DNA from: an uncultured bacterium
Lineage (GTDB): Bacteria; Verrucomicrobiota; Kiritimatiellia; RFP12; UBA1067
Reading direction: 5' to 3'
Assembly: GCA_902770045.1 (NCBI GenBank)
Contig: CACXRO010000004.1
Span: 7,323 to 71,322 of the forward strand
DNA length: 64,000 nt
In this document: positions 3,122-63,833 of the stretch, piece after piece
Layout of the letters: each line of letters begins with the position of its first letter
Numbering within the stretch: position 1 is the stretch's first letter
The notes under the pieces: model-generated
What the model was told of the DNA's origin: nothing
Database searches by the model: none
The model's input: only the letters and a program-made list of their open reading frames with translations
Position numbers and translations under genes: made by a program

Positions 3122-3589
3122 ATGCAGATCGAAGTCATGCTCATGGACGACGTGAAGAAGCTCGGCAAGTCCGGCCAGGTCGTCAAGGTCGCCGCCGGCT
3201 ATGCCCGCAACTTCCTCTTCCCGAAGGGGCTCGCGGCGGTCGCAACCGAGGCCGCCAAGCGCCGCCTGAAGAAGCTCGAGGCCGAGCGCGCCGCCCGCGC
3301 CGCCGAGGAGAAGAAGGCCGCGCTCGAGGTCGCGAAGAAGCTCGACAAGCTCGAGATCACCGTTTCGGCGAACACCGTGGACGGCAAGCGCCTCTACGGC
3401 TCGGTCGGCATCTCCGACATCCTTGCGGCAATCGAGGCCAACCGCGGCATCAAGCTCGAGCGCTCGCAGATCGAGCTCGAGGACTCGCTCAAGGAAATCG
3501 GCGAGTACGAGCCCACGATCGACCTCGGCCACGGCGTGAACGTCCGCTTCAAGATCACGATCCTGGACGAGGGGGCCGCCCAGGCCTAA
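3122..3589 (+). CDS. rplI: 50S ribosomal protein L9
   Basis: MQIEVMLMDDVKKLGKSGQVVKVAAGYARNFLFPKGLA is the L9 N-terminal domain. Confidence 0.9.
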   Translation: MQIEVMLMDDVKKLGKSGQVVKVAAGYARNFLFPKGLAAVATEAAKRRLKKLEAERAARAAEEKKAALEVAKKLDKLEITVSANTVDGKRLYGSVGISDILAAIEANRGIKLERSQIELEDSLKEIGEYEPTIDLGHGVNVRFKITILDEGAAQA

Positions 3590-34900: not shown

Positions 34901-35189
34901 CGTTGAGCGCGGTCTGTCCGCCAAGCGTCGGGAGCAGCGCGTCCGGGCGCTCCTTGCGGATGATCGCGGCGACGGAGTCGACGGTCAGCGGCTCGATGTA
35001 GGTCGCCTCGGCCATTTCCGGGTCGGTCATCACCGTCGCCGGATTGGAGTTCGCGAGGACGATTTCGAATCCCTCGCGCCGCAGCGCCTTCACCGCCTGG
35101 CAGCCCGAGTAGTCGAACTCGCAGCCCTGGCCGATGACGATCGGACCGGAGCCGATGATCAATATCTTTTTCAGGTCGGTGCGCTTCAT
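31905..35189 (-). CDS. carB: Carbamoyl-phosphate synthase large subunit (with three in-frame repeat insertions)
   Basis: [29 protein letters not shown].., second ATP-grasp half [22 protein letters not shown].., MGS-like C-terminus. ATGA overlap with the pyrG stop. Confidence 0.93.
32488..32568. repeat. GGTTAGGT/GGTTGGGT/GGTTTGGT octamer array (about 10 units) in frame in carB
   Basis: Translated on the minus strand as [28 protein letters not shown]. Confidence 0.9.
33519..33586. repeat. CGCAAAG nonamer hairpin element in frame in carB
   Basis: ctgccgcaaagtacgcaaagagcgcaaagg-acgttctg-tctttgcgttctctgcgttctctgcggc. Translated as [24 protein letters not shown], just before the conserved [13 protein letters not shown]. 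Confidence 0.9.
33796..33883. repeat. CGCAAAG nonamer hairpin element in frame in carB
   Basis: ttgccgcaaagatcgcaaaggtcgcaaag-(30 nt loop)-ctttgcgttctctgcgttctttgcggcta. Translated as [30 protein letters not shown]. Confidence 0.9.
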
Positions 35190-36922
35190 TTCCGCTTCCT
35201 GCCTTTCAGCGCCGCCGCGACGAGGCCGAGGAAGAGCGGGTGCGGGGCGGTGGGGCGGCTCTTGAACTCGGGGTGAAACTGGCCGGCGATGAAGTACGGG
35301 TGCGACGGCAGTTCGACGATCTCCACGAGCTTGCCGTCGGGCGAAAGGCCGCTTACCTTGAGCCCGGCCGCCTCGAGCCTTTCGCACGCCTCGCTGTCGT
35401 AGGCGAGCTCGTAGCGGTGGCGGTGTCGCTCGGAGATTGTCAATGTTCCATTTTTAGCCACAAAGGACACAGAGTTCACAGAGTCTTTGTGCTCTTTGTG
35501 TTCTTTGTGGCTATAGAGTTTATCGGCGAGAGTGCCGCGCTTGATGACGCAGGGATAGGCGCCGAGGCGCATGGTGCCGCCTTTCTGGGTGATGCCGCGC
35601 TGTTCCTCCATGAGGTCGATGACCGGATGCGTTGTGTGCTCGTCGAACTCCGTCGAGTTGGCGTCCGCCCATCCGAGCACATCGCGGGCGTATTCGATCA
35701 CCGTGCACTGCATGCCAAGGCAGATGCCAAGGAAGGGGATCTTGTGCTCGCGCGCGTACTTGATCGCCGCGATCTTGCCCTCGACGCCTCTTGATCCAAA
35801 GCCCCCCGGAACCAGAATGCCGTCGATGTTTGATAATTTTTTGCCACAAAGATCACAAAGGCCACAAAGTCTTTTCCCGCTCTTTGCGTTCTCTGTGTTC
35901 TTTGTGGCTAAAAGTTCTTCCGATTCGATCGGCACGACCACCACCTTGCAGTCGTTCGCCATGCCGGCGTGCTGCAGCGCCTCGTGGATCGACTTGTAGG
36001 CGTCGCGGATGGCGATGTACTTGCCGACGAGCGCGATGCGGCAGTGCTTCTTCGGCTGCGTCGCCTTCCTGACGAGCGTGTCCCAGACGGTGTGCTTCAC
36101 CGGCCAGATGTCGAGGTGGAGCTGCCGCAGGACCTGCTCGTCGAGTCCCTGCTTCCTGAGCTCCCGCGGCACCGCATAGACCGAGTCGGTCACGTCCTGC
36201 TCCTCGATCACGCACTCGGGCCTCACGTTGCAGAAGAGGGCCAGCTTTTGCTTGTGCTCCTCGGGAATCGGCATCTCCGTGCGGCAGACGAGGATGTCGG
36301 GGATGATGCCGATGTTGCGGAGCTGTCCCACCGAGTGCTGCGACGGCTTGGTCTTGAGCTCGCCCGCGGCCTTCAGGTAGGGGACGAGCGTCAGGTGCAC
36401 GAAGCAGGTGTTCTCGATGCCCTCCTCGAAGCGGAACTGCCGCGCCGCCTCGAGGAAGGGGAGCGACTCGATGTCGCCGGAGACGCCTCCGATCTCGCAG
36501 AGGACGATGTCGCAGTCGTGGTTGCCGGCGTCGTGGATCGCCGCCTTGATCTCGTCGGTGATGTGCGGGACGACCTGCACCGTACCGCCGAGGTACCCGC
36601 CCGCGCGCTCGCGCGCGAGGACGGCGGAGTAGATGCGGCCCGAGGTGTAGTTGGACGCCTTGGTGCAGGTGACGCCGGCGAAGCGCTCGTAGTGGCCGAG
36701 GTCGAGGTCGGTCTCCGCGCCGTCGTCGGTCACGAACACCTCGCCGTGCTGGTAGGGCGACATAGTGCCGGGGTCGACGTTGAGGTACGGGTCGAGCTTC
36801 TGCATGAAGACCTTGTAGCCGCGCGACTTGAGAAGCAGCGCGAGCGAAGCCGAGGTGATTCCCTTGCCGAGCGAGCTCACGACGCCGCCTGTGATGAACA
36901 CGTATTTGACTTGCTTTTTCAT
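35186..36922 (-). CDS. pyrG: CTP synthase (with two in-frame repeat insertions)
   Basis: [55 protein letters not shown]. Confidence 0.93.
35455..35513. repeat. CACAAAG nonamer hairpin element in frame in pyrG
   Basis: tagccacaaaggacacagagttcacagag-tctttgtgctctttgtgttctttgtggcta. Translated as [22 protein letters not shown]. Confidence 0.9.
35841..35910. repeat. CACAAAG/CGCAAAG nonamer hairpin element in frame in pyrG
   Basis: ttgccacaaagatcacaaaggccacaaag-tcttttcccg-ctctttgcgttctctgtgttctttgtggcta. Translated as [24 protein letters not shown]. Confidence 0.9.
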
Positions 36923-36991: not shown

Positions 36992-38169
36992 TTTATCATC
37001 GATTTGAATTGGTTAAATAGGTAGTTGGAGTCGTGCGGACCGGGGCAGGCCTCGGGATGGTACTGCACCGAGAACGCCGGGAGCGTCTTGTGCCGGATAC
37101 CCTCGATCGACCCGTCGTTGAGGTTGACGTGCGTGACTTCGAGGCAGTCCGGCACCGACTCCGGGATGACGGCGAAGTTGTGGTTCTGGCTGGTGATCTC
37201 CACCTTGCCGGTCTCAAGGTTCTTCACCGGATGGTTGCAGCCGTGGTGGCCGAACTTGAGCCTGCCGGTCTTCGCGCCGCAGGCAAGCGAGAGCAGCTGA
37301 TGCCCCAGGCAGATGCCCATGATGGGGATTGGTTTGGTGGTTAGGTGGTTAGGTGGTTGGGTGGTGCTGGTATGCGCACTCAAACGCTCAAACCCCAACA
37401 ACTTTCTGATGTTCTCGATGGCATAAGTCACTGCCGCCGGGTCGGCGGGGCCATTCGAGAGGAACACGCCGTCGGGGGAGAGAGCAAGCACCTCCTCGGC
37501 CGGCGTCTTCGCCGGCACGACCGTGACCTTCGCCCACGACGCCAGCGACCTGAGGATGTTCAGCTTGACGCCGAAGTCATAGCAGATGATCCATGGTTCG
37601 TGGTTCGTGGCTCGTGGCTCGGGTGTGAAATCATACGCCTTTTCGCAAGTCACTTTTGCCGCGTAGTCTTGGCCGTCGAGACCGGGCCATTCGTTGGACT
37701 TGGCCATCGCAGCTTCCTCGCTTAGAGACGCGTCAACGCAGAGATACGCCTTCCGGTTGCCGTGCTCGCGGATGTGCAGCGTCAGCGCACGGGTGTCCAC
37801 GCCGTAGATGCCCGGGACGCCGTTCTCGGCGAGATATTCGCCGAGGCTCTTTTCGCTGCGCCAGTTGCTGGGTTCAGTGAGGTCGCCGATGACGAGCCCC
37901 GACAGAAAAAGTCCCCGGGACTCGACGTCCTCGGGGTTGATGCCGTAGTTGCCGACTTCGGCGGTGGTGAGGGTGACGAACTGTCCGGCGTAGGAGGGGT
38001 CGGTCAGGATCTCCTGGTAGCCGCTCATCCCGGTGTTGAAGACGACCTCGCCGAGCGCATCTTTCTTCGCGCCGAACGCGACGCCGTGGAATACGGCGCC
38101 ATCGTCCAGCGCAAGGAACGCCTTCCGCTCCCGCTCGTTCTTCCATTTCTCCTCGTAGCTCATAGCCAT
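36973..38169 (-). CDS. carA: Carbamoyl-phosphate synthase small (glutaminase) subunit
   Basis: GEVVFNTGMSGYQEILTDPSYAGQ..GICLGHQLL..HGCNHPV..SQNHNF..VQYHPE. Confidence 0.93.
   Translation of the reverse strand: MAMSYEEKWKNERERKAFLALDDGAVFHGVAFGAKKDALGEVVFNTGMSGYQEILTDPSYAGQFVTLTTAEVGNYGINPEDVESRGLFLSGLVIGDLTEPSNWRSEKSLGEYLAENGVPGIYGVDTRALTLHIREHGNRKAYLCVDASLSEEAAMAKSNEWPGLDGQDYAAKVTCEKAYDFTPEPRATNHEPWIICYDFGVKLNILRSLASWAKVTVVPAKTPAEEVLALSPDGVFLSNGPADPAAVTYAIENIRKLLGFERLSAHTSTTQPPNHLTTKPIPIMGICLGHQLLSLACGAKTGRLKFGHHGCNHPVKNLETGKVEITSQNHNFAVIPESVPDCLEVTHVNLNDGSIEGIRHKTLPAFSVQYHPEACPGPHDSNYLFNQFKSMIKAAKNA
37331..37365. repeat. GGTTAGGT octamer array in frame in carA
   Basis: ggtttggtggttaggtggttaggtggttgggtggt. 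Translated as [12 protein letters not shown], immediately before the conserved IMGICLGHQ. Confidence 0.9.
37595..37621. repeat. GGTTCGTG/GGCTCGTG octamer array in frame in carA
   Basis: ggttcgtggttcgtggctcgtggctcg. Translated as EPRATNHEP. Confidence 0.85.
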
Positions 38170-38224: not shown

Positions 38225-40171
38225 CTAGTAAGACCTTTCATTTATTTTGTCAAGATAGTTCTTGATCGCCTGGTGCAGGACCTTGTAGCCTCCTGGCGTC
38301 GGGTAGTCGCCGGTGAAGTACCAGTCGCCGAATTCGTGGTTCGTGGTTCGTGGTTCGTGGTTCGTGGCTGGGCGGTTAGGTGGTTGCAGGCATTGGCGAA
38401 GGTTGTCGACGGTCTGGTAGACGACCTTGACTTCCGCCTTCATGCCGGGCGGCGTGAGGAGACGCGCGATTTCCGCGCAGTGCTCCTCTTCGGTGAAGCG
38501 GGCATAGAGTTCGGCGAGAGGGTTTTCTTTGACAGGATTTACAGGATTAACAGGATTGGGATTGGGGGGCTGGGGGGTGTCTCCAGATAATCCTGAAAAT
38601 CTTGTTAATCCTGTCAAAAGATTTTCGGCTTCCTTGCCGAGCAGGTTCATGAGCGCCTTGAAGGCGACGAGTTCGCCGAGGGTGGACATGTCGATGCCGT
38701 AGCAGTCGGGATAGCGGATCGGCGGCGCGGAGGAGGCGACGACGATCCGCTTCGGCCCCAGCCGGTCCAGCATCGGCAGGATGGCGTTCTTCATCGTGTT
38801 GCCGCGGACGATCGAGTCGTCCAGCACCACGAGCGTGTCCCGGCCGGGGCGCACCAGTCCGTAGGTGACGTCGTAGACGTGCTTGTAGAACTCGCGTCGC
38901 GCCGCGGCGTCGGCGATGAAGGTGCGGAACTTCGCGTCCTTCACCGCAATTTCCCCGAAGCGGGGAAATTGGTTAGGCGGTTGGGTGGTTAGGTGGTTAG
39001 GTGACTGCTGAGCTGAACTGTCCAACCATTTTTTGAATAATTCTTCCAGCAGCCCATGGAAGGCGATGCGGGCGGAGTTGGGGATGTAGGAGAAGAAGAT
39101 GTCTTCGATCGGCGCATCCGCCGCGGCGAGGATCTGCGGCACCAGCGCCGCGCCGAGCGCCTTGCGCTCGCGGTGGATGTCGGCGTCGTTGGCGCGGGAA
39201 AAGTAGATGCGCTCGAAGGTGCAGGGGCGGGGTGGTGGTTGGGTGGCTGTGGGAGGATTTTCAAACCGCACTTCGCCGTCAGGAGAAACGACGAGCGTTT
39301 GGCCGGGCGGGAGTTCCTTCACCGCCTCCGGCGGCACGTCGAAGGCGGCCTGGATCGCGGGGCGCTCGCTGGCTACTGCCACCACGTTGTCGTCGAGGTA
39401 GTAGAAGCCGGGGCGGATGCCGCACGGGTCGCGCGTCGCGAAGGCCCAGCCGTCGCCGGTCGTGCCGCATAGCGTCCAGGCGCCGTCGGCTTTGGCGAGC
39501 GCGGAGGAGAGTGCTCTGGCAATCGGAGTCTCACACGGAGGCACAGAGGCACGGAGCCTTCCGTCCTCTGAGTCTCTGTGGCTCTGCGTGAGTTCGTGGG
39601 CGATCAGTTCGCAGATGAGGTAGCCGTCGGACCGGCTGGTGGGGAAGGAGCCGCGGCGTTGGTAGTCGTCGAAGAGCTCGCGCGCGTTGGTGAGGTTGAA
39701 GTTGCCGGCGAGGAGGACAGTGTGGGCGAGTTCGCTCGATTCGTGGATGAACGGATGGCAGAACGCCACCTCGTTCTTTCCGAAGGTGGCGTAGCGGAGG
39801 TGGCCGAGGAATATCCTTTCTTGATTTTTGCCACAAAGATCACAAAGGCCACAAAGGCTATCTCCCTCATTTTTGTGTTCTATGTGTTCTTTGTGGCTAA
39901 ATCTTCTCCCGATGGCGGCGAGTATGTCCGCAAGCGGCGTCGCCGAAGCCGATTTTGCGATCCAGTACGGCGGTTCTCCCGGATTGGGGTTGTTGGAGAG
40001 GATCGCCGCGCCGGCGCCGTCCTGGCCGCGGTTGTGCTGCTTCTCCATGAGGAGCGAGAGCTTCGTTCCGCCATAATCGCCCGCGGCGACGGTGGTCCCG
40101 CGCAGGACCACCATCGCCACGGCGCATTCGTGCTTTAGTTCATCTGACATTTTGTCCGACTGCCATAGCAC
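38225..40171 (-). CDS. purF: Amidophosphoribosyltransferase (648 aa, expanded by at least 5 in-frame repeat insertions)
   Basis: N-terminal nucleophile region HECAVAMV..HNRGQDGAG..GHLRYATFG. PRT motif LVVLDDSIVRGNT. The start may be ATG 40150 instead. Confidence 0.88.
   Translation of the reverse strand: MLWQSDKMSDELKHECAVAMVVLRGTTVAAGDYGGTKLSLLMEKQHNRGQDGAGAAILSNNPNPGEPPYWIAKSASATPLADILAAIGRRFSHKEHIEHKNEGDSLCGLCDLCGKNQERIFLGHLRYATFGKNEVAFCHPFIHESSELAHTVLLAGNFNLTNARELFDDYQRRGSFPTSRSDGYLICELIAHELTQSHRDSEDGRLRASVPPCETPIARALSSALAKADGAWTLCGTTGDGWAFATRDPCGIRPGFYYLDDNVVAVASERPAIQAAFDVPPEAVKELPPGQTLVVSPDGEVRFENPPTATQPPPRPCTFERIYFSRANDADIHRERKALGAALVPQILAAADAPIEDIFFSYIPNSARIAFHGLLEELFKKWLDSSAQQSPNHLTTQPPNQFPRFGEIAVKDAKFRTFIADAAARREFYKHVYDVTYGLVRPGRDTLVVLDDSIVRGNTMKNAILPMLDRLGPKRIVVASSAPPIRYPDCYGIDMSTLGELVAFKALMNLLGKEAENLLTGLTRFSGLSGDTPQPPNPNPVNPVNPVKENPLAELYARFTEEEHCAEIARLLTPPGMKAEVKVVYQTVDNLRQCLQPPNRPATNHEPRTTNHEFGDWYFTGDYPTPGGYKVLHQAIKNYLDKINERSY
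38333..38386. repeat. GGTTCGTG octamer x5 plus GGTTAGGT units in frame near the purF C-terminus
   Basis: Translated as QPPNRPATNHEPRTTNHE. Confidence 0.9.
38528..38618. repeat. AATCCTGTT nonamer hairpin element in frame in purF
   Basis: tttgacaggatttacaggattaacaggatt-(loop)-aatcctgaaaatcttgttaatcctgtcaaa. Translated as LTGLTRFSGLSGDTPQPPNPNPVNPVNPVKE. Confidence 0.9.
38971..39003. repeat. GGTTAGGT octamer array in frame in purF
   Basis: ggttaggcggttgggtggttaggtggttaggtg. Translated as [12 protein letters not shown]. Confidence 0.9.
39533..39590. repeat. CAGAGGC-family hairpin element in frame in purF
   Basis: cacacggaggcacagaggcacggag-ccttc-cgtcctctgagtctctgtggctctgcgtg. Translated as TQSHRDSEDGRLRASVPPCE. 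Confidence 0.85.
39828..39899. repeat. CACAAAG nonamer hairpin element in frame in purF
   Basis: ttgccacaaagatcacaaaggccacaaagg-(loop)-tttgtgttctatgtgttctttgtggcta. Translated as [25 protein letters not shown]. Confidence 0.9.
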
Positions 40172-40210
40172 TAAACCACCAAACTACCTAACAACCTAAC
40201 CACCTAACCA
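40172..40210. repeat. CCTAACC/CCAAACC octamer tract in the glnN-purF spacer
   Basis: ctaaaccaccaaactacctaacaacctaaccacctaacc. Opposite orientation, relative to transcription, compared with the intragenic copies. Confidence 0.8.
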
Positions 40211-43863: not shown

Positions 43864-46800
43864 ATGAACGATCAAAGCAGAAAAGACCGACAGCCGGGGC
43901 TCTACCGGCGAGAATTCGAGCACGACGCGTGCGGCGTCGGCATGGTCGCGAACCTCTCCGGCGAGGCGAGCCACGACATCGTCGAGAAGGGCATGACCAT
44001 CCTGAAGCGGCTCATGCACCGCGGCGCCACCGGCAACGACCCGGATACCGGCGACGGCGCGGGACTGCTGATGAAGATCCCGTATGGGTTTTTCAAAAAA
44101 GTGCTTAAGTTACCCAACCACCTAACCACCCAACCACCTAACCACCAAACCGAATTCGGAATTGCGATGATTTTCGGCGGCGAGGGCGAGGAGGCGGCGA
44201 TCGAGGGCGTGGTCAAGTCCGAGGGATGCAAGGTCCTCGGCTGGCGCGACGTGCCGACCAACCCCGACGCCATCGGACGCGACGCCCGCGCCGTTATGCC
44301 GCGGATTAGGCAGCTGTTCATAGCCGCTGGATCGGCAAGCTCTCAGAATCCTGTTAATCCTGTTAATCCTGTCAAAGAAGATTTCGAGCGCAGGCTCTAC
44401 ATCGTCCGCCGTCAGATCGAGAAGGCGACGAAGAAGACGTACGTCTGCTCCTGCTCGGCGCGGACGATTGTCTACAAGGGGCTGCTGCTTGCGACCCAGA
44501 TCGAGAGGTTCTACCCCGACCTCTCGGACCCGGACTTCGTCACGCCGTTCGCGATCGTCCACCAGCGGTACTCCACGAACACCTTCCCTTCCTGGGAGCT
44601 CGCCCATCCGTTTCGCGCCATCGCGCACAACGGCGAGATCAACGCGCTCAAGGGCAACCTCAACGCGCTTGCCGCGCGCGAGCCGTCGCTCGCCTCGCCG
44701 CTCTTCGGCGACGAGCTGAAGAAGCTGCTGCCGGTCGTCCACGCGGGGCAGTCCGACTCCGCATCGCTCGACAACATGTTCGAGCTGCTGGTCGCGGCCG
44801 GGCGCGACGCCCCTCACGCGATGATGATGCTCGTTCCCCAGGCCTGGGGCGCGAAGTACCACATGGGCCACGACGTGCGCGCCTTCTACGAGTACCACTC
44901 CGCGCTGATGGAGCCGTGGGACGGCCCCGCGGCGCTGGCGTTCACCGACGGCAAGGGCCTCGGCGCGACCCTCGACCGCAACGGACTCCGTCCCGCGCGC
45001 TGGACGCTCACCAAGGACGGGCTCTTCGTCCTCGCCTCCGAGACCGGCGTCCTCGACATCCCGGCGGATGCGGTAGCCCGCCGCGGCAGGGTGAAGCCGG
45101 GGGCGATGCTCTGGCTGGACCTCGAGAGCCACCGGCTCATGGAGGACGCGGAGGTCAAGACGTTCTACGCCCGCCGCCGTCCCTACCGTCGCTGGGTGGA
45201 CGAGAACCACATCCCGGTCACCGGCCTCTTCGCGGAGATCGTGCCGTCGAAGGCGCCCGGCGGCGCCGGCGCGCTCGCCGCGCAGCAGCGGAGCTTCGGC
45301 TACACGCTGGAGGACGTCGAGCTCATCCTCAGGCCCATGGCCGAGACCGGGCACGAGCCGGTCGGCGCGATGGGCAACGACGCGGCGCTAGCGTGCCTGA
45401 GGCAGGGGCGCTTCCGCCTCTTCGACTGCTTCCACCAGCTCTTCGCGCAGGTCACGAACCCGCCGATCGACCCGATCCGCGAGGAGCTCGTGATGTCGAT
45501 CATGACCTACATCGGCAACCAGGGGAACATCCTTGACGAGACGCCGGAGCACGCGCGGCTCGTCAAGATGACGCGCCCGGTGCTGACCGACGACGAGATG
45601 CGGCGCATCCGGAACATCCCCGACTTCCCGGCGAAGACGCTGCCGCTGTTCTTCGGCGGCTCGCTCGAGGACGCGCTCAAACGGCTCGCCGCGGACGCGC
45701 TCGCGGCGGTGAAGGGCGGCGCGAAGATCATCATCTTGTCGGACCGAGAGGGTTTAGCCACAAAGGACACAAAGGACACAAAGAACACAGAGGGGAAAAG
45801 AATTCCATCGCTCCTTGCAGTCGCGGCGGTCAACAAGTCGCTTGCGGACGCCGGCTTGAGGCCGTCCGTCGGCGTCGTCGTCGAGTCCGGCGAGGTGAGC
45901 GAGGTTCACCACTTCGCCGTCCTGCTCGGCTTCGGCGCGACGGCGGTCAACCCCTGGCTCGCGCTGGAGACCGTCTCTGAGATCGGCCGGGCGGGGCTTC
46001 CCCGCTCCGCCGTCGAGACGACCGCGCTCCACGCGGTGCGTCCGGAGGCCGCCCCCTACCTGGCCACCTCCAACTACGTCACGGCGGTATGCAAGGGGCT
46101 GATGAAGATCATGTCGAAGATGGGCATCTCGACGCTCAGGTCCTACCGCTCGGCGAAGATCTTCGAGGCCGTCGGGCTCGGTCCAAAGCTCATGGCGGAG
46201 TACTTCGAGGGCGTCGTCTCGCCAGTCGGCGGTCTGGAGCTGGAGGATCTCGAGAGACTCGTGGCTCGTGGCTCGTGGTTCGTGTCGGAGAATCACGAGA
46301 CACGAATCGCGAACCACGAATCACGAAACACGACTCTTTCGCCCGGCGGCGAGTACCGCGCGCGCAAGGGCGGCGAGGAGCACCTCTGGACGCCGCAGCG
46401 GCTCGTCGACTTCCGCGAGGCAGTGCGCAACGACGACTACGCCCGCTTCCACCGCTACACCGATGCCATCGACCAGAACAGCCATGTGACGCTCCGCTCG
46501 CTGCTGGAGTTCAATCCCAACCACCTAACCACCCAACCACCTAACCACCTAACCATTGAGGTCGAACCCGTCGATTCCATCGTGAAGCACTTCGTCGGCG
46601 GCGCGATGTCCCTGGGCTCGCTCTCGCCCGAGGCGCACGAGACGATTGCGCTCGCGCTGAACGGGCTCGGCACGATGTCCAACTCCGGCGAGGGCGGCGA
46701 GAACCCCGAGCGCTTCGGCACCGACAAGAACAGCGCGATCAAGCAGGTCGCGTCCGGCCGCTTCGGCGTGACGATCGAGTACCTCCGCAGCGCCAAGGAC

Positions 46801-48384
46801 CTGCAGATCAAGCTTGCCCAGGGCGCGAAGCCGGGCGAGGGCGGGCAGCTACCCGCGCACAAGGTGAACGAGTTCGTCGCCCGCCTCCGCCACGCGAAGC
46901 CGGGCACCCCGCTCATCTCGCCGCCGCCGCACCACGACATCTACTCCATCGAGGACCTCGCGCAGCTCGTCTACGACCTCAAGTGTGCCAACCCCGCCGC
47001 GCGCGTCTCGGTGAAGCTCGTCTCCGAGGCGGGGGTCGGCACGATCGCCGCTGGCGTCGCCAAGGCGCACGCCGACGTGGTGGTCATCTCCGGCTTCGAC
47101 GGCGGCACCGGCGCCGCTCCGCTCACCTCGGTGAAGCACACGGGTCTGCCGTGGGAGCCGGGGCTCGCCGAGGCCCACCAGACGCTGGTCAAGAACAACC
47201 TCCGGCACCGCGTGAAGCTGCAGGTCGACGGACAGCTCCGCACCGGACGCGACATCGTCATCGCCGCGATGCTCGGCGCGGACGAGTTCGCGTTCGGCAC
47301 CTCGATGCTCGTCTCGCTCGGCTGCATCCAGTGCCGCAACTGCAACCTCAACTGCTGCCCCGTCGGCATCGCGACCCAGAAGGAGGAGCTGCGCTGCAAG
47401 TTCGCCGGCAAGCCAGAGCACCTGCAGCGCTACTTCCGATTCCTCGCCGAGGAGGTGCGCGAGGTGCTCGCCTCGCTCGGACTCAAGTCGCTCGCCGAGG
47501 CGCGCGGCCGCACCGACTTGCTGAAGGCGGTCGACGGCTCGCGGTTTGATTTTGGTGATGTGCTCGCGCAGAGACGCGGAGAAGCGGAGAAGCGCAAGGA
47601 CTTTGAGCCTTATGCGTTCTCCGAGGCCGAGAACTACGACTTCCGCGAGCTGATTCCGGCCGTGGAGAAGGGCGAGACCGAGCTGAAGCGCGCAATCGCC
47701 AACCGCGACCGATCCGTCGGCGCGGCGCTCTCCGGCTGGCTCGTCGCCCACCATCCAACCACCCAACCACCTAACCACCTAACCATAAACTTCACCGGCG
47801 TTGCCGGGCAGTCCTTCGGCGCGTTTCTCGCCAAGGGAGTGGAGTTCAACCTCGTGGGCGAGGCGAACGACTACGTCGGCAAGTCGCTCTCCGGCGGCGT
47901 GATTACCATCAAGGCGCAGGATAACAAGTCTTTCCGTCCCGAGGACAATGTCATCGCCGGCAACGTGATTGCCTACGGCGCCACGTCGGGCGCGATCTAC
48001 GTCAACGGGCAGGCGGGCGAGCGCTTCGGCATCCGCAACTCCGGCGCGACGCTCGTCGCCGAGGGCGTGGGCGACCACGGTTGCGAGTACATGACCGGCG
48101 GCACGGCGGTGGTGCTGGGTCCGGTCGGCGTCAACTTCGCCGCGGGCATGACCGGCGGCGTCGCCTACGTCTACGACGAGAAGGGCGACATGGACCTCAA
48201 CTGCAACCTCGACTCCGTCGACCTCTTCCCGGTGGAGGCGGGATCGGCGGACGAGAAGGAACTGCTCGCGCTCATCGACGAGCACATCTCGCGCACCGGC
48301 TCGCCCAAGGCCAAGCGACTCGTCGCAGGCTGGGCGGACGTACGTCCGTATTTCACGAAAGTCCTGCCGGCGCACCGTCGGTAG
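43864..48384 (+). CDS. gltB: Glutamate synthase large subunit (with at least 6 in-frame repeat insertions)
   Basis: EHDACGVGMVANL (Ntn Cys), HQRYSTNTFPSWELAHPF, QVTNPPIDPIREE, SGEGGE, GAKPGEGGQLP, SPPPHHDIYSIEDL, C-terminal GxxGxxG beta-helix. Confidence 0.93.
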   Translation: MNDQSRKDRQPGLYRREFEHDACGVGMVANLSGEASHDIVEKGMTILKRLMHRGATGNDPDTGDGAGLLMKIPYGFFKKVLKLPNHLTTQPPNHQTEFGIAMIFGGEGEEAAIEGVVKSEGCKVLGWRDVPTNPDAIGRDARAVMPRIRQLFIAAGSASSQNPVNPVNPVKEDFERRLYIVRRQIEKATKKTYVCSCSARTIVYKGLLLATQIERFYPDLSDPDFVTPFAIVHQRYSTNTFPSWELAHPFRAIAHNGEINALKGNLNALAAREPSLASPLFGDELKKLLPVVHAGQSDSASLDNMFELLVAAGRDAPHAMMMLVPQAWGAKYHMGHDVRAFYEYHSALMEPWDGPAALAFTDGKGLGATLDRNGLRPARWTLTKDGLFVLASETGVLDIPADAVARRGRVKPGAMLWLDLESHRLMEDAEVKTFYARRRPYRRWVDENHIPVTGLFAEIVPSKAPGGAGALAAQQRSFGYTLEDVELILRPMAETGHEPVGAMGNDAALACLRQGRFRLFDCFHQLFAQVTNPPIDPIREELVMSIMTYIGNQGNILDETPEHARLVKMTRPVLTDDEMRRIRNIPDFPAKTLPLFFGGSLEDALKRLAADALAAVKGGAKIIILSDREGLATKDTKDTKNTEGKRIPSLLAVAAVNKSLADAGLRPSVGVVVESGEVSEVHHFAVLLGFGATAVNPWLALETVSEIGRAGLPRSAVETTALHAVRPEAAPYLATSNYVTAVCKGLMKIMSKMGISTLRSYRSAKIFEAVGLGPKLMAEYFEGVVSPVGGLELEDLERLVARGSWFVSENHETRIANHESRNTTLSPGGEYRARKGGEEHLWTPQRLVDFREAVRNDDYARFHRYTDAIDQNSHVTLRSLLEFNPNHLTTQPPNHLTIEVEPVDSIVKHFVGGAMSLGSLSPEAHETIALALNGLGTMSNSGEGGENPERFGTDKNSAIKQVASGRFGVTIEYLRSAKDLQIKLAQGAKPGEGGQLPAHKVNEFVARLRHAKPGTPLISPPPHHDIYSIEDLAQLVYDLKCANPAARVSVKLVSEAGVGTIAAGVAKAHADVVVISGFDGGTGAAPLTSVKHTGLPWEPGLAEAHQTLVKNNLRHRVKLQVDGQLRTGRDIVIAAMLGADEFAFGTSMLVSLGCIQCRNCNLNCCPVGIATQKEELRCKFAGKPEHLQRYFRFLAEEVREVLASLGLKSLAEARGRTDLLKAVDGSRFDFGDVLAQRRGEAEKRKDFEPYAFSEAENYDFRELIPAVEKGETELKRAIANRDRSVGAALSGWLVAHHPTTQPPNHLTINFTGVAGQSFGAFLAKGVEFNLVGEANDYVGKSLSGGVITIKAQDNKSFRPEDNVIAGNVIAYGATSGAIYVNGQAGERFGIRNSGATLVAEGVGDHGCEYMTGGTAVVLGPVGVNFAAGMTGGVAYVYDEKGDMDLNCNLDSVDLFPVEAGSADEKELLALIDEHISRTGSPKAKRLVAGWADVRPYFTKVLPAHRR
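44113..44151. repeat. CCAACCAC/CTAACCAC octamer array in frame in gltB
   Basis: Translated as [14 protein letters not shown]. Confidence 0.9.
44345..44377. repeat. AATCCTGTT nonamer x3 (half element) in frame in gltB
   Basis: cagaatcctgttaatcctgttaatcctgtcaaa. Translated as QNPVNPVNPVK. Confidence 0.9.
45754..45792. repeat. CACAAAG nonamer x3 (half element) in frame in gltB
   Basis: ttagccacaaaggacacaaaggacacaaagaacacagag. Translated as LATKDTKDTKNTE. Confidence 0.9.
46258..46333. repeat. GGCTCGTG/GGTTCGTG hairpin element in frame in gltB
   Basis: ctcgtggctcgtggctcgtggttcgtg-tcggagaa-tcacgagacacgaatcgcgaaccacgaatcacgaaacacg. Translated as LVARGSWFVSENHETRIANHESRNT. Confidence 0.9.
46516..46555. 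repeat. CCAACCAC/CTAACCAC octamer array in frame in gltB
   Basis: Translated as [15 protein letters not shown]. Confidence 0.9.
47754..47785. repeat. CCAACCAC/CTAACCAC octamer array in frame in gltB
   Basis: Translated as [12 protein letters not shown]. Confidence 0.9.
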
Positions 48385-55955: not shown

Positions 55956-56801
55956 GTGACCGATGTCGCGGTGATAGTGCTGATCGGACGCGAGCGCCTG
56001 CACATCGCGCGGTGCGTGGAGCGCCTCGGCCCCCTCGCGCCGCGGCAGGTCTTCGTCGTCGCCTCGCAGCCCGACGACGGCGGCGAGGCCCTCGCGCGCG
56101 ACGCCGCGCGGCGGCTCGGCTGGGCCGTGGACGCGCAGGACCCCGCGCGCCCGTCGCTGGAGATCCGCTTCCACGAATGGCCGGGCAATCAGGCGGTCCA
56201 GCTCAACTGGGCGATCGACAGCCTGCCGCTCGCGGCGGAATGGGTGCTGCGGCTCGACGCCGACGAGTACCTCCTGCAGGAGACCGTCGAGGAGCTCAAG
56301 GCGACGCTCCCCGCGACCGACGCCACCTCGCTTGCCTTCCCGCTCTCGCGGCGCATCTTCGGCGGACCCATCCGCCACGGCATGCCCGAGATCGTGCTCG
56401 TGCGCGCATTCCGCCGCGGACTCGGGCGCTCGACCGGCGCGGAGATGGACGAGCGGTTCGTGACCGAGCGCGGAACCTGCCTGCGGATGAATGGCGGGTT
56501 CGTGGACGATTCGCTCCTGCCGCTCGCGGACTGGAAGCAGAAGCACCGCGACTACGCGCGGCGAGAGGCGAGGATGGCCGTCGAGGGGCGCGCCAACGGC
56601 AACAAGCGCCTCTACTACCGCCTGCCGCCGTACCTGCGCGCAGTCGCCTACTTCGCCTGGCGCTACTTCCTGCGCCTCGGCTTCCTCGACGGACTCCCCG
56701 GCTGGCGCTGGCACTTCTGGCAGGGACTCTGGTACCGCCTCCTCGTCGACTGCGAGATTTCTTGCCTGAAACGAACCACGAACCACGAACCACGAATATG
56801 A
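55956..56801 (+). CDS. Family 2 glycosyltransferase-like protein (GTG start); C-terminal tail encoded by a repeat
   Basis: VAVIVLIGRERLHIARC..LRLDADEYL (DxD-like). The last residues KRTTNHEPRI come from the GAACCACG array. Confidence 0.6.
   Translation: MTDVAVIVLIGRERLHIARCVERLGPLAPRQVFVVASQPDDGGEALARDAARRLGWAVDAQDPARPSLEIRFHEWPGNQAVQLNWAIDSLPLAAEWVLRLDADEYLLQETVEELKATLPATDATSLAFPLSRRIFGGPIRHGMPEIVLVRAFRRGLGRSTGAEMDERFVTERGTCLRMNGGFVDDSLLPLADWKQKHRDYARREARMAVEGRANGNKRLYYRLPPYLRAVAYFAWRYFLRLGFLDGLPGWRWHFWQGLWYRLLVDCEISCLKRTTNHEPRI
56771..56796. repeat. CGAACCAC octamer x3 (GGTTCGTG family)
   Basis: acgaaccacgaaccacgaaccacgaa. It forms the 3' end of the GT2 gene and abuts the proS promoter. 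Confidence 0.9.
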
Positions 56802-61002: not shown

Positions 61003-61016
61003 GGTGGGGTTTGTTT

Positions 61017-61045
61017 CCCGCAGAGACGCAGAGTCGCTGAGAGGA
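61017..61045. repeat. GCAGAGAC-family repeat, ending in the SD of the next gene
   Basis: cccgcagagacgcagagtcgctgagagga. The ATG at 61054 follows 8 nt later. Confidence 0.85.
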
Positions 61046-61053
61046 GTTTCTAA

Positions 61054-61995
61054 ATGGAAAAGAATGAGATAGTGTTGTTTGAGTCCGAAGATGGCGCGGT
61101 ATCGTTGCCGGTATCGGTCGAGGCTGATACCGTATGGCTGACCCGTATGCAGATGGCGAATCTATTTGGCGTCACGCCGCAGAATATCACAATCCACCTC
61201 AAAAAGGTGTATGCGGCTGGCGAATTGGAAAGATCGTCAACTAGTAAAGATTTTTTACTAGTTCAAGAAGAAGGAGGACGTCAGATAGCCCGTTCTGTGA
61301 ATTGTTACAATCTTGACGCAATCATTTCGGTCGGTTATCGTGTCAATTCCTCGCGCGCTACGCAATTTCGCATCTGGGCCACTAAAGTCTTGAAAGAGTA
61401 TATGTTGCGTGGCTATGCAGTCAACCGTGAGCGTATCCGCCAGCTCGGCCAGACGGTTGAGGTGATGAAGCGGGTTGTCAACAACCTTGACACCGAGCAG
61501 GTGCTTGACGTCGTCCAGACCTACTCGGCGGCGCTTGATCTGTTGGACGGCTACGACCACCAGACGATTGAGAAACCGAAGGCAAAGGGGCGCGCGGTCG
61601 AGTTATCCTACGAGGAGTGCCGCCGCTTCATTGACAGCATGAAGTTCGCGGCGGATTCGCCGCTGTTCGGCAACGAGAAGGACGGTTCGTTCAAGTCCGC
61701 GCTCGGGGCGGTTTACCAGTCTTTTGGCGGAAAGGACCTCTATCCGTCTTCGCAGGAGAAGGCGGCGAACCTGCTGTATCTCGTCACGAAGAACCACGGC
61801 TTCTCTGACGGCAACAAGCGAATTGCCGCCGGGCTGTTCCTGTATTTTCTGAAGCGCAACCGGCTGCTTCTTCGCAAGGACGGCTCGAAGCGCATCGCCG
61901 ACCATACGCTCGTTGCGCTTACGGTGATGATTGCAGAATCCAAGCCGCAGGAGAAAGAGCTGATGGTCAATCTCGTGATGACGTTTCTGAAGTGA
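61054..61995 (+). CDS. RhuM-family N-terminal domain fused to a Fic/Doc domain
   Basis: The RhuM-like N-terminus is VWLTRMQMANLFGVTPQNITIHLKKVY..SVGYRVNSSRATQFRIWATKVLKEY. The Doc-type motif is KNHGFSDGNKRIAAGLF. Confidence 0.8.
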   Translation: MEKNEIVLFESEDGAVSLPVSVEADTVWLTRMQMANLFGVTPQNITIHLKKVYAAGELERSSTSKDFLLVQEEGGRQIARSVNCYNLDAIISVGYRVNSSRATQFRIWATKVLKEYMLRGYAVNRERIRQLGQTVEVMKRVVNNLDTEQVLDVVQTYSAALDLLDGYDHQTIEKPKAKGRAVELSYEECRRFIDSMKFAADSPLFGNEKDGSFKSALGAVYQSFGGKDLYPSSQEKAANLLYLVTKNHGFSDGNKRIAAGLFLYFLKRNRLLLRKDGSKRIADHTLVALTVMIAESKPQEKELMVNLVMTFLK

Positions 61996-62004
61996 GTTTA
62001 TATC

Positions 62005-62036
62005 TCCCGCAGAGACGCAGAGGCGCAGAGAGGAGG
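62005..62036. repeat. GCAGAGAC-family repeat (left arm flanking the GxxExxY gene), supplies the SD
   Basis: tcccgcagagacgcagaggcgcagagaggagg, followed by tagatATG at 62042. Confidence 0.9.
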
Positions 62037-62041
62037 TAGAT

Positions 62042-62581
62042 ATGATAGAAGATGACGTGAGACAGATAACTGGCGACGTAATTGATTCGGCGATGAAGAT
62101 TCATAAGATGTTTGGACCAGGAATGTTGGAGTCGGTTTACGAACGGATGCTGGCGATAGAACTTAAGAGACGGGGGCATGGTGTGGAATGTCAGAAATCA
62201 ATCGGCTTTATGTATGAGGGCGAGGCGTTTGAAGATGCATTTCGTCTTGATTTGCTTGTGGACGGGGAAGTTGTTGTCGAGTTGAAATCTACCAGCACGA
62301 TGAATCCTGTTTTTGCCAAGCAACTTCGGACATATCTTGTTCTCTCCGGCTTGGAAATAGGCTTGGTTATTAATTTTGGTATGGCATTGATGAAAGACGG
62401 TATAGTGCGGGTAATCAACAGCCACAATCTAAACTGTTCTCAGAATCCACTCTGCGCCTCTGCGTCTCTGCGGGGAAGAGAAAAAGGGTTTCCCACAGAG
62501 GCACAGAGACACAGAGAAAAGGGCGGAACAACACTCTGCGCCTCTGCGTCTCTGCGGGAAACAAAAAAGGAACAACCATGA
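62042..62581 (+). CDS. GxxExxY-family PD-(D/E)XK-like protein with a ~50 aa repeat-encoded C-terminal extension
   Basis: [17 protein letters not shown] (GxxExxY), [13 protein letters not shown] (D..ExK), GLVINFG. Family-typical length ends near 62430. The ORF then reads through three repeats (..[23 protein letters not shown]..) to a stop overlapping the macro ATG. Confidence 0.8.
62448..62559. repeat. Three GCAGAGAC-family units: inverted (62448-62475), forward variant (62491-62523), inverted (62532-62559)
   Basis: cactctgcgcctctgcgtctctgcggg occurs twice identically. The reverse complement of its core equals 62006-62030 (25 nt). Confidence 0.9.
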
Positions 62582-63192
62582 TCAAGATTATCCAGGGCGA
62601 TATAACGACACTTGCGGTGGATGCCATCGTCAACGCGGCGAACCAGGTGATGCTTGGTGGAGGCGGTGTTGATGGCGCGATTCACCGCGCCGCCGGGCCG
62701 GAGCTTTACGAGGCGTGCCTCAAGGTTCCGGAGGTGCGGCCGGGCGTACGCTGCCCGACGGGCGAGGCGCGCATCACGACGGGCTTCAAGTTGCCTGCAA
62801 AGTTTGTAATCCACACAGTCGGCCCGGTCTATCGCGAGATAACCGCCCCTTGCGGGGGTTCGCGACCCATGGGGAAGCGAACACGCCGAGCGGAGCGAGT
62901 GCCGAGACTTCATGGCGAGCCCGAAAAACTTGCGGCCTGCTACCGCAACTCGCTTGCTCTCGCGATGGAGAACGGCTGCAAGTCCATCGCATTCCCCTGT
63001 ATCTCGACAGGTATCTACGGCTATCCGAAGGAAGATGCCGCGGAGATTGCGGTGCGGGAGGTGGAGGAATTTCTAGCCGCATCCACCTCCGCGCCTTGCG
63101 CTACGGTGGACGAGAAGAACGCAGAGATGGACGTGATCTTCTGCTGCTTCTCGACGCACGATGTGGCGGTGTATGAACGATTGCTGAAATGA
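62578..63192 (+). CDS. Macro-domain protein (YmdB/MacroD-like ADP-ribose-processing hydrolase)
   Basis: [54 protein letters not shown]. Confidence 0.88.
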
Positions 63193-63224
63193 TATATGGA
63201 ATTGAACAGGAAAGGATTTTTGCA

Positions 63225-63833
63225 ATGAAGGCAAACTATGTGATGATAGATTTCGAGAATGTCACCCCTGATAATCTCGACGCGTTGAAGCAGACGGACT
63301 TCAAAGTTATGCTTTTTGTCGGCGAAGGCCAAAAGAGCATCCCGAAACAAATTGCAATGGCGATGCAGCGCATCGGAGCAAAAGGGGAATATGTCGAGAT
63401 TGGAGGGACTGGGCACAATGCGCTTGACTTCCACATTGCCTATTACGTTGGTTGCATTTCAGTAGAGGACAAGGACGCATATTTTCACATTGTCTCAAAA
63501 GACAAAGGTTTCGATCCGCTTGTAAAGCATTTGCATGGTCGTGGCATTTTCATTGATCGTGTTGAGTCAATAGAGGCAATTCCGGCCTTGATGCAGGCCA
63601 AGTCTTCTAAAATGTCTCTCAGAGATCAGGTTGCACAGACGAAAGAGCGATTGTCAAAGCCTGGCGTAACGCTGCCTCGGTCGCGCAAGACGCTGTCCAA
63701 TCATGTCAATGCCATGTTTGGCAAGTTGTTGCCAGAGGAGCGTGTCGTGGCAATTGTTGATGCATTATTTGTAGAAGGGTTTGCATTTGAGAATGGCAAA
63801 CGTGTTGAATTCAAATGTGAGCGCAAAGCGTAA
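63225..63833 (+). CDS. PIN/NYN-like domain protein (tentative)
   Basis: VMIDFENV..MLFVGEGQ..HNALDFHIAYY..HIVSKDKGFD resembles the acidic-residue pattern of NYN/LabA-type PIN folds. AGGAAAGGA upstream. Confidence 0.4.
   Translation: MKANYVMIDFENVTPDNLDALKQTDFKVMLFVGEGQKSIPKQIAMAMQRIGAKGEYVEIGGTGHNALDFHIAYYVGCISVEDKDAYFHIVSKDKGFDPLVKHLHGRGIFIDRVESIEAIPALMQAKSSKMSLRDQVAQTKERLSKPGVTLPRSRKTLSNHVNAMFGKLLPEERVVAIVDALFVEGFAFENGKRVEFKCERKA

Follow-up and report, generated by a model that had tools for sequence, protein, structure and literature searches.

The segment described here lies in a 64,000-nucleotide (nt) stretch of contig CACXRO010000004.1 from an uncultured Kiritimatiellia bacterium (hereafter the window), in which a gene for a putative nuclease of the GxxExxY/PDDEXK_3 family, the only one of its kind in the window, is framed by inverted copies of a short periodic repeat. 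The gene and its repeats are part of an operon, in which they are co-oriented with and located between a RhuM/Fic gene and a Macro gene (Table 1). The inverted repeat constitutes the terminal arms of a compact module that reads, in order, T-rich flank, CCC, three 8-nt units, Shine-Dalgarno site, gene, three inverted units, GGG and A-rich flank, and the arms belong to a family of dispersed periodic palindromes. Comparison of the module and its repeats across bacterial lineages suggests that the nuclease works on these dispersed hairpin repeats.

The arm CCCGCAGAGACGCAGAGGCGCAGAG at 62006-62030 (+) is the exact reverse complement of 62450-62474 over 25 nt, as the initial annotation had noted, and matches to it occurred in none of 100 dinucleotide-preserving shuffles (0 expected by chance). 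When mismatches are allowed, the inverted repeat reaches 38 nt (61997-62034 versus 62446-62483, 87%). The arm is composed of three tandem 8-nt units, GCAGAGAC GCAGAGGC GCAGAG, with the consensus (GCAGAGRC)x3, and its outer end is TCCC followed by the T-rich flank. A third exact copy is found at 62534-62558 (-), where it forms part of an adjacent gene-less hairpin, and a copy with two mismatches lies at 61017-61041 (+).

The open reading frame (ORF) starts 7 nt past a GAGGAGG motif that directly adjoins the upstream arm. Its product matches PF13366 (PDDEXK_3) over residues 8-124 (E 1.7e-34, 119.1 bits, cut-off 22) and TIGR04256 (GxxExxY; E 5.7e-35, 120.2 bits, cut-off 35), and no Pfam family other than PF13366 matches the protein. 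The domain ends near 62415, close to the limit of about 62430 that had been given for the conserved part of the ORF enclosed by the arms. Past the domain the open frame continues through the downstream repeats to a stop codon at 62579-62581, which overlaps the start of the next gene, and the last ~55 residues (LCASASLR..., after ~62430) are translated repeat. Likewise, C-terminal tails of homologues (e.g., LRVN) and some N-terminal extensions (AETQRRRE, HEDTKARGE) correspond to translated arms; the annotation of GxxExxY genes picks up long repeat-encoded tails and fusions. Some database proteins of ~275-295 residues contain two tandem GxxExxY domains joined by a short linker (P0235-P0238, P0240, P0241, and others; P and L numbers denote proteins and loci of this analysis).

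Nine residues are invariant among 31 homologues (G25, G27, E30, Y33, D70, E80, K82, Q94, and Y98), and they make up the GxxExxY motif, a canonical D...ExK nuclease center and a QxxxY motif. The AlphaFold2 model has a mean predicted local distance difference test score (pLDDT) of 92.9 and a predicted template modeling (TM) score of 0.86. The top structures retrieved with Foldseek are Cas4 (4ic1, 4r5q), the lambda-exonuclease-like 3syy and MGME1, with high probability and TM-scores of just 0.44-0.49, whereas a search of solved structures by sequence gave no match. The likeness to Cas4, RecB and lambda exonuclease is at the level of the fold only and comprises the PD-(D/E)XK core, D...ExK and QxxxY; apart from the modest TM-scores, the protein differs from them in being a single domain of ~125 residues that has no Fe-S cluster domain and no CRISPR or recombination genes in its context. 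With intact catalytic residues, a confident model and folds of the Cas4/lambda-exonuclease type among its structural matches, the protein looks active. The family is large, with 34,712 clusters at 50% identity matching the profile at E <= 0.001. A survey of the PD-(D/E)XK superfamily in 2012 gives the function of GxxExxY/PDDEXK_3 as unknown (PMC3424549), and a literature search, which did not cover all journals, found no function for the family, no such repeats and no link between gene and repeat.

Table 1. Positions in the window of the module, its nuclease gene, related repeats and other periodic repeat families.
Feature	Positions	Strand	Remarks
Full segment absent from the empty site	61996..62577	+	arm + gene + arm + extra hairpin; fills the gap from the RhuM/Fic stop codon to the Macro start codon
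Upstream arm	61997..62034	+	core 62006-62030 = CCC + (GCAGAGAC)(GCAGAGGC)(GCAGAG); T-rich outer flank 61997-62005
Shine-Dalgarno-like GAGGAGG and ATG	62031..62044	+	GAGGAGG 62031-62037 abutting the arm, ATG 62042; read from sequence
GxxExxY/PDDEXK_3 nuclease ORF, 179 aa	62042..62581	+	domain aa 8-124, to ~62415
GxxExxY motif, G27-Y33	62120-62140	+	invariant, 31-sequence alignment
D70	62249-62251	+	invariant, 31-sequence alignment
E80-x-K82	62279-62287	+	invariant, 31-sequence alignment
Q94-xxx-Y98	62321-62335	+	invariant, 31-sequence alignment
Downstream arm	62446..62483	-	core 62450-62474, exact reverse complement of 62006-62030; A-rich outer flank
Adjacent gene-less hairpin, same family as arms	62491..62567	.	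arms 62494-62516 (variant CACAGAG units) and 62534-62558; 17-nt loop
Solo arm, same family as gene-flanking arms	61010..61048	+	between sigma-54 activator stop and RhuM/Fic start
pyrG in-gene hairpins (ORF 35186-36922)	35455-35513, 35835-35916	-	period-9 RCAAAG units, in frame
carB in-gene hairpins (ORF 31905-35387)	33513-33590, 33793-33886	-	period-9 RCAAAG units, in frame
Repeats in 648-aa ORF	38528-38618, 38971-38998, 39531-39590, 39826-39901		
ACAGGATT repeats	38528-38618, 44346-44375		period 9
CCACGAA repeats	37594-37621, 38332-38368, 46251-46341, 56770-56797		period 7
GGTGGTTA repeats	32493-32568, 37338-37364, 40186-40210, 44118-44144, 46521-46547, 47750-47771		period 8

Conservation and boundaries of the module

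A scan of one genome per species yielded at least 80 GxxExxY loci, 75 of them testable, from Alpha-, Gamma-, Delta-, and Zetaproteobacteria, Cyanobacteria, Verrucomicrobiota, Planctomycetota, Acidobacteriota, Chloroflexota, Gemmatimonadota, Bacteroidota, and others, representing at least 10 phyla. The score of a locus was that of its best inverted repeat without gaps, with one arm in the 160 nt before the domain and the other in the 220 nt after it, and the threshold was the 99th percentile of 2,073 placements of the same geometry within the same loci. The score reached or exceeded this threshold in 61 of the 75 testable species (81%), as opposed to 1% of the controls. Among the 61 flanked loci, the purine-rich arm lies upstream in 55 and a periodic unit pattern is present in 53. 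The initial annotation had likened the locus to an enlarged hairpin element that carries the gene in its loop, had proposed to inspect other GxxExxY genes for flanking repeats, and would have been refuted if these were never flanked; both the description and the flanking hold for the 61 species that share the layout, and homology ends at the outer ends of the arms (see below).

Across species the arms vary on a single design, TCAC-(GCRRAGRC)x3. Sphingomonads, for example, carry GCGGAG or GCGAAG units and Geobacter carries GCAACG; GCAAAG occurs in Nostoc, Nodularia, and several Verrucomicrobiota, and both ACAGAG and ACAAAG occur in Bacteroidota and Chloroflexota. Annotated records of Bacteroides finegoldii and Bernardetia show the arm-gene-arm layout as well, and the gap between upstream arm and start codon is about -5 to +30 nt in many phyla. 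In a plasmid collection, GxxExxY occurs in five records. In one locus (L074 3001-4700), partial GxxExxY copies are repeated in tandem every ~237 nt, and the same arm follows each copy.

In sphingomonads, the module is located between fabD and fabG in seven genome loci that span the four named genera Sphingomonas, Sphingomicrobium, Sphingorhabdus, and Novosphingobium, an order (fabD, GxxExxY, fabG, acpP, fabF) that is confirmed by an annotated record of S. parapaucimobilis. The proteins of these copies are 54-89% identical and their synonymous sites are saturated. Within each genome the arms are perfect or nearly perfect complements of each other, and one arm sequence is common to four genomes of three genera. 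In one clade (L014, L031) all six units read GCGAAG instead of the GCGGAG of the other sphingomonads. Comparison of the window copy with those of L087 and L095 gives a dN/dS of 0.07-0.10 at a proportion of synonymous differences (pS) of 0.35-0.52, with arms that differ by 0-1 nt. As judged from these substitution patterns, both the gene and the arms are under purifying selection.

In 20 loci with period-8 units, agreement between the two arms at variable positions is seen in 0.60-1.00 of loci (0.36-0.65 expected), and units within an arm are identical in 48% of pairs (12% expected). The arms are thus constrained in three respects, namely sequence, complementarity and the mutual likeness of the three units. 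For a plain stem, complementarity alone would suffice, and the likeness of the units would fit repeated binding sites for one protein or a homogenizing process.

The limits of the module were defined by copies in other gene neighborhoods, where proteins 87-89% identical to that of the window occur. The gene for P0006 is flanked by a PDDEXK_4 gene and a PIF1 helicase gene, that for P0012 adjoins secDF, and that for P0020, which is 71% identical, has a fucose-isomerase-like gene on one side and kduI on the other. When four copies are aligned as DNA, homology sets in at the T-rich flank outside the upstream arm and extends as far as CTCTGCGGG(A) of the downstream arm, and the flanks outside the arms are unrelated; the upstream limit is shared with the copies in L087, L095, and L311, and the downstream limit with L087 and L095. 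A search for empty sites, which the initial annotation had recommended, found such sites in closely related strains. In L181-L183 (RhuM/Fic 99% identical) and L184 (91%), only 13-14 nt separate the Fic stop codon from the Macro start codon, as opposed to 582 nt in the window (61996-62577), and in L181 this spacer is the 13-nt ATGGATGGGGCAA. A blastn comparison of the window with L181 gives 97.2% identity on the left, as far as the Fic stop, and 91% on the right, where it resumes at the Macro ATG. The empty sites were reached via Fic homologues; exact copies of the window's Fic and Macro proteins led only to the same arrangement or to contigs broken at the repeats, at which assemblies break.

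Further alleles reveal changes at the scale of single repeats. The allele encoding P0003 (L311) has the gene and a single downstream arm. What it lacks is precisely one 84-nt period (arm, spacer, arm, loop), which includes the extra hairpin and is seen in the window at 62448-62484 versus 62532-62568; the period is absent near L311 700-730. In addition, the left neighbor of the module in L311 is that of L087, unlike that of the window. The solo arm upstream of RhuM/Fic (61017-61041) has three units in the window and in L181 and one unit in L184 (~3470-3490), an exact 16-nt difference, so that the number of units varies between strains.

The surroundings of the module in the window, together with the corresponding regions of L181 and L184, form a variable, defense-like island (window positions 61054-63833) with RhuM/Fic (PADLOC candidate PDC-S23), Macro, PIN7 (GmrSD in other strains), and PLDc_2 genes. 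The RhuM/Fic protein (61054-61995) has ~8,000 database relatives at E <= 1e-40; unusually, considerably more than a hundred distinct sequences among them form a tight cluster at 89-90% identity. In the Macro gene (62578-63192) the Pfam match is split by an extra segment at 62836-62930, and the length of the protein is 194, 198, 202 or 204 residues between strains. In L311 (752-877) Macro is cut to 41 codons, with the first 22 codons joined to a C-terminal remnant and a TCTCACGCGGAGGCGCGGAG arm at the junction.

Dispersed copies of the repeat

Most arms elsewhere are gene-less hairpins or solo arms. Loci were also sampled by the repeat alone. The metagenome sample comprises 120 loci (667 kb) with 203 arms, in which adjacent arms are oriented (+,-) 46 times (44 within 1.5 kb) and (-,+) nine times (five within 1.5 kb), and in which 32 hairpins have no more than 150 nt between their arms. 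GxxExxY genes or fragments are contained in six of the 120 loci, directly at arms in all six (6/6), and four of the five (+,-) loops of 370-530 nt hold GxxExxY. It is the sole cargo gene that recurs in the repeat-selected loci. A viral sample of 79 loci (730 kb), found with the pattern CGCAGAGRCGCAGAGRCGCAGAG, includes ~150 arms, mostly solo or in short hairpins between phage genes. In four viral contigs (L112, L130, L134, L158), the GCAGAGGC octamer is repeated in tandem ten times or more, forming long arrays.

Within a single species, S. parapaucimobilis, one GxxExxY match is accompanied by at least 16 arm places in five replicon records, including a gene-less hairpin between tonB and pdeM. 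In its replicon CP155752 (L307 ~1500-1700), a hairpin of the GCGGAG type is nested in the loop of one of the GCGAAG type, and two unit types hence coexist in one genome. The association is asymmetric, since nearly all genes have arms and most arms have no gene. The same pattern is known for genes of REP-associated tyrosine transposases (RAYTs) and their repetitive extragenic palindromic (REP) sequences or the hairpins built from them (REPINs) (PMC3116915, PMC5581495).

Gene-less hairpins of similar design are found in the window within pyrG and carB, where they are read in frame and hence represent inserted DNA, which behaves as if it persisted wherever it can be translated. Removal of these in-gene hairpins by splicing at the RNA level, a reading that arose from the RNA-splicing endonucleases among PD-(D/E)XK enzymes (3ajv is among the weak fold matches), was rejected for both genes, as every hairpin keeps the frame open and contains no stop codon; the open frame points to translation, not removal. 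At least three other periodic families in the window, listed last in Table 1, follow the design of three units per arm and often form hairpins, and have no associated gene there. A minus-strand ORF of 648 residues (38225-40171) with a glutamine amidotransferase domain runs through several hairpins and periodic repeats of different families.

Relation to known systems and alternative explanations

The closest parallel is the REPIN-RAYT system. In both cases a vertically inherited enzyme gene is flanked by inverted copies of a short palindromic repeat, target-site duplications are absent, and the arrangement persists for long times under purifying selection. The GxxExxY module may also share with REPIN-RAYT a single enzyme gene per genome and the dispersal of the repeat as gene-less hairpin doublets. 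However, the enzyme is of the PD-(D/E)XK, RecB/Cas4 type, whereas RAYTs are HUH tyrosine transposases of the IS200/IS605 kind; the arms consist of three tandem 8-nt units with a TCAC end, unlike the REP hairpin with its GTAG tag; and the module spans many phyla beyond Proteobacteria. Moreover, catalysis by PD-(D/E)XK enzymes does not pass through a covalent intermediate with DNA, so that any copying has to rely on host repair. The module would work like REPIN-RAYT but is not a member of that system.

Other known elements share fewer features. Insertion sequences (IS) and miniature inverted-repeat transposable elements (MITEs) likewise have a gene bounded by inverted repeats, far commoner short derivatives that lack the gene, and presence or absence between strains. 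The module differs from them in having neither a target-site duplication nor a known transposase fold, its copies are old and diverged, with the closest ones in other contexts differing at 35-52% of synonymous sites, and the gene-less hairpins are not versions of the gene-bearing unit shortened by internal deletion. Some 23S rRNA intervening sequences carry a small ORF (the four-helix-bundle S23p family, PF05635) in the loop of an inverted-repeat stem inside the host transcript. The module similarly loops a small ORF within a long inverted-repeat stem inside a host transcript, but it lies between protein genes in all loci read, its ORF family is unrelated, and the test for G-U pairs described below gives no RNA signal. 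The Rickettsia palindromic elements are palindromic repeats inserted in frame in protein genes, as are the gene-less hairpins in pyrG and carB of the window, although the unit design differs; no enzyme gene is known to accompany the Rickettsia elements.

It is proposed, at a probability of about one half, that the nuclease and the repeat form a functional partnership like that of REPIN and RAYT, built on a RecB/Cas4-like nuclease. The nuclease would be encoded inside one copy of the repeat that it recognizes. The single-domain PD-(D/E)XK enzyme would bind the tandem units of the arms, possibly with one protomer per 8-nt unit, and would cut the hairpin or cruciform DNA that the arms form. As such a nuclease is itself unable to reseal DNA, copying, loss and rearrangement of the repeat, and with them its spread or maintenance, would proceed via host break repair, a route that would leave no target-site duplication. 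A host-repair step would fit the absent target duplications, the replacement of a whole spacer where flank identity also changes, and those deletions that have arms at the junction. The arms may additionally pair in the operon transcript and cover the ribosome-binding site of the gene, which would keep its expression low inside host operons.

Several observations weigh against this proposal. The copies in different contexts are old (pS 0.35-0.52) and there is no sign of recent bursts. The filled and empty sites differ in the whole spacer and not by a clean interruption, with no direct repeat at the junctions, and the direct repeats that flank 53 loci have the lengths expected from shuffling, so that no target-site duplication beyond chance is detected. 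Most arms are not near any GxxExxY gene, and none of the 79 viral loci (730 kb) contains one. A GxxExxY copy on a plasmid from Fusobacteria (L309 1100-1660) has a 22-nt direct repeat, CAGATTTAATCCGTGTACCTAT, and no inverted periodic arms. The unit sequence appears to track the host lineage, being richer in G/C in Alphaproteobacteria and richer in A in Cyanobacteria and Bacteroidota, which may reflect host composition instead of coevolving specificity; the relation of unit type to protein clade is therefore not used as evidence for such specificity. Finally, the in-gene hairpins of the window belong to other unit families (period 9 RCAAAG, ACAGGATT, period 7 CCACGAA, period 8 GGTGGTTA), and no GxxExxY subfamily adjoining these families was found in ~2 Mb of DNA examined. 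The initial annotation had regarded the gene as a candidate autonomous partner of the cargo-less elements, and this idea survives in part. It gains indirect support from GxxExxY being the only recurrent cargo, from one gene for at least 16 arm places in one Sphingomonas genome and from in-gene hairpins being inserted DNA, but the in-gene hairpins of the window have period 9 and the arms of the gene period 8.

One alternative places the function of the arms in RNA only. The ~25-bp stem would then be cut by RNase III or another double-strand RNase or would simply hide the ribosome-binding site, the inserted cistron being trimmed out or silenced like 23S rRNA intervening sequences, and the protein would be unconnected to the arms as DNA. 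This agrees with the minimum-free-energy fold of 61996-62580, in which the predicted stem of 62006-62030 and 62450-62474 takes in part of the GAGGAGG (z = -5.8), as well as with the upstream arm abutting the start codon in many phyla, the co-orientation of the module within operons (fabD-fabG and Fic-Macro), the failure of simple scans to detect a promoter or terminator of its own, and the covariation of the arms. It is nevertheless considered unlikely. Across 67 loci, the mismatches between arms are not biased towards G-U pairing on the sense strand (47 sense versus 64 antisense), and many of these mismatches are transversions, a result that also lends no support to the intervening-sequence-type RNA stem of the initial annotation. 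Likeness of units within an arm is not needed by a stem, solo arms that have no partner are kept between strains, and hairpins of the same design that lie in frame in essential genes point to DNA insertion. A search of Rfam at permissive E-values matched no family, returning only sub-threshold generic hairpins (miRNA precursors). The repeats are consequently taken as DNA-level elements, for which an added effect at the RNA level on expression of the nuclease gene is possible.

A slightly less probable alternative accepts DNA-level activity and reverses the dependence, with a homing-type, selfish nuclease gene that parasitizes an independent host repeat family, targets its hairpin loops, is copied into them by break repair and adds nothing to the spread or upkeep of the repeat. 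The absence of target-site duplications would fit, as would replacement of the whole spacer with the drop in flank identity from 97 to 91% across the site, which resembles co-conversion; the nested hairpin demonstrates that loops can take insertions, and arms far outnumber genes and abound in phage contigs that lack the gene. Against this, inheritance at one operon site in sphingomonads is stable and under strong purifying selection, unlike that of a free-riding homing gene, the loop of the neighboring gene-less hairpin does not resemble either end of the module that bears the gene, and arms of 25-35 nt would provide only short homology for repair-mediated copying. It is far less plausible that the arms are recombination sites shuffling small genes and that GxxExxY is a defense-type nuclease cassette or component of a defense island. 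The defense-like neighbors in the window (RhuM/Fic, Macro, PIN7, and PLD), the exchange of PIN7 for GmrSD in other strains and the L311 allele, with its different left neighbor and its arm at the junction of a Macro gene cut to 41 residues, could be read in this way. However, no PADLOC family (0 matching profiles) and no PHROGs entry matches GxxExxY, the module elsewhere resides among the housekeeping genes fabD/fabG, radA, ade, secDF, and kduI, and none of the loci read has a recombinase gene linked to the module. Coincidence, by which two repeat copies in a repeat-rich genome happen to flank a small gene, might be suspected in a window that holds many periodic repeats of several families, yet it is refuted by the comparative data, namely the flanking of GxxExxY genes in 81% of 75 species against a 1% control rate and their position directly at arms in all six repeat-selected cases, together with the shuffles of the window arm, and retains a negligible probability.

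Beyond the partnership of nuclease and repeat, it is put forward tentatively, as a proposal that is on balance doubtful, that GxxExxY genes and periodic palindromes (3 x 7-10 nt) represent a third kind of enzyme-repeat replicator besides those based on HUH (RAYT/REPIN) and DDE (IS/MITE) enzymes. Such a replicator would be ancient, present in at least 10 phyla and mostly vertically inherited, would spread by nuclease-triggered, repair-mediated copying that leaves no target duplications, and would be the source of the in-frame hairpins in pyrG and carB of the window.

The arrangement offers the GxxExxY/PDDEXK_3 family a concrete candidate substrate, the three-unit arms that flank the gene in most lineages. 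If the nuclease does act on them, the principle of a single enzyme gene housed within a palindrome that is its own and is dispersed, as in RAYT/REPIN, would have arisen with a different catalytic chemistry, and the family would provide a candidate enzyme for the unexplained short palindromic repeats of many phyla, including those that are translated in essential proteins.

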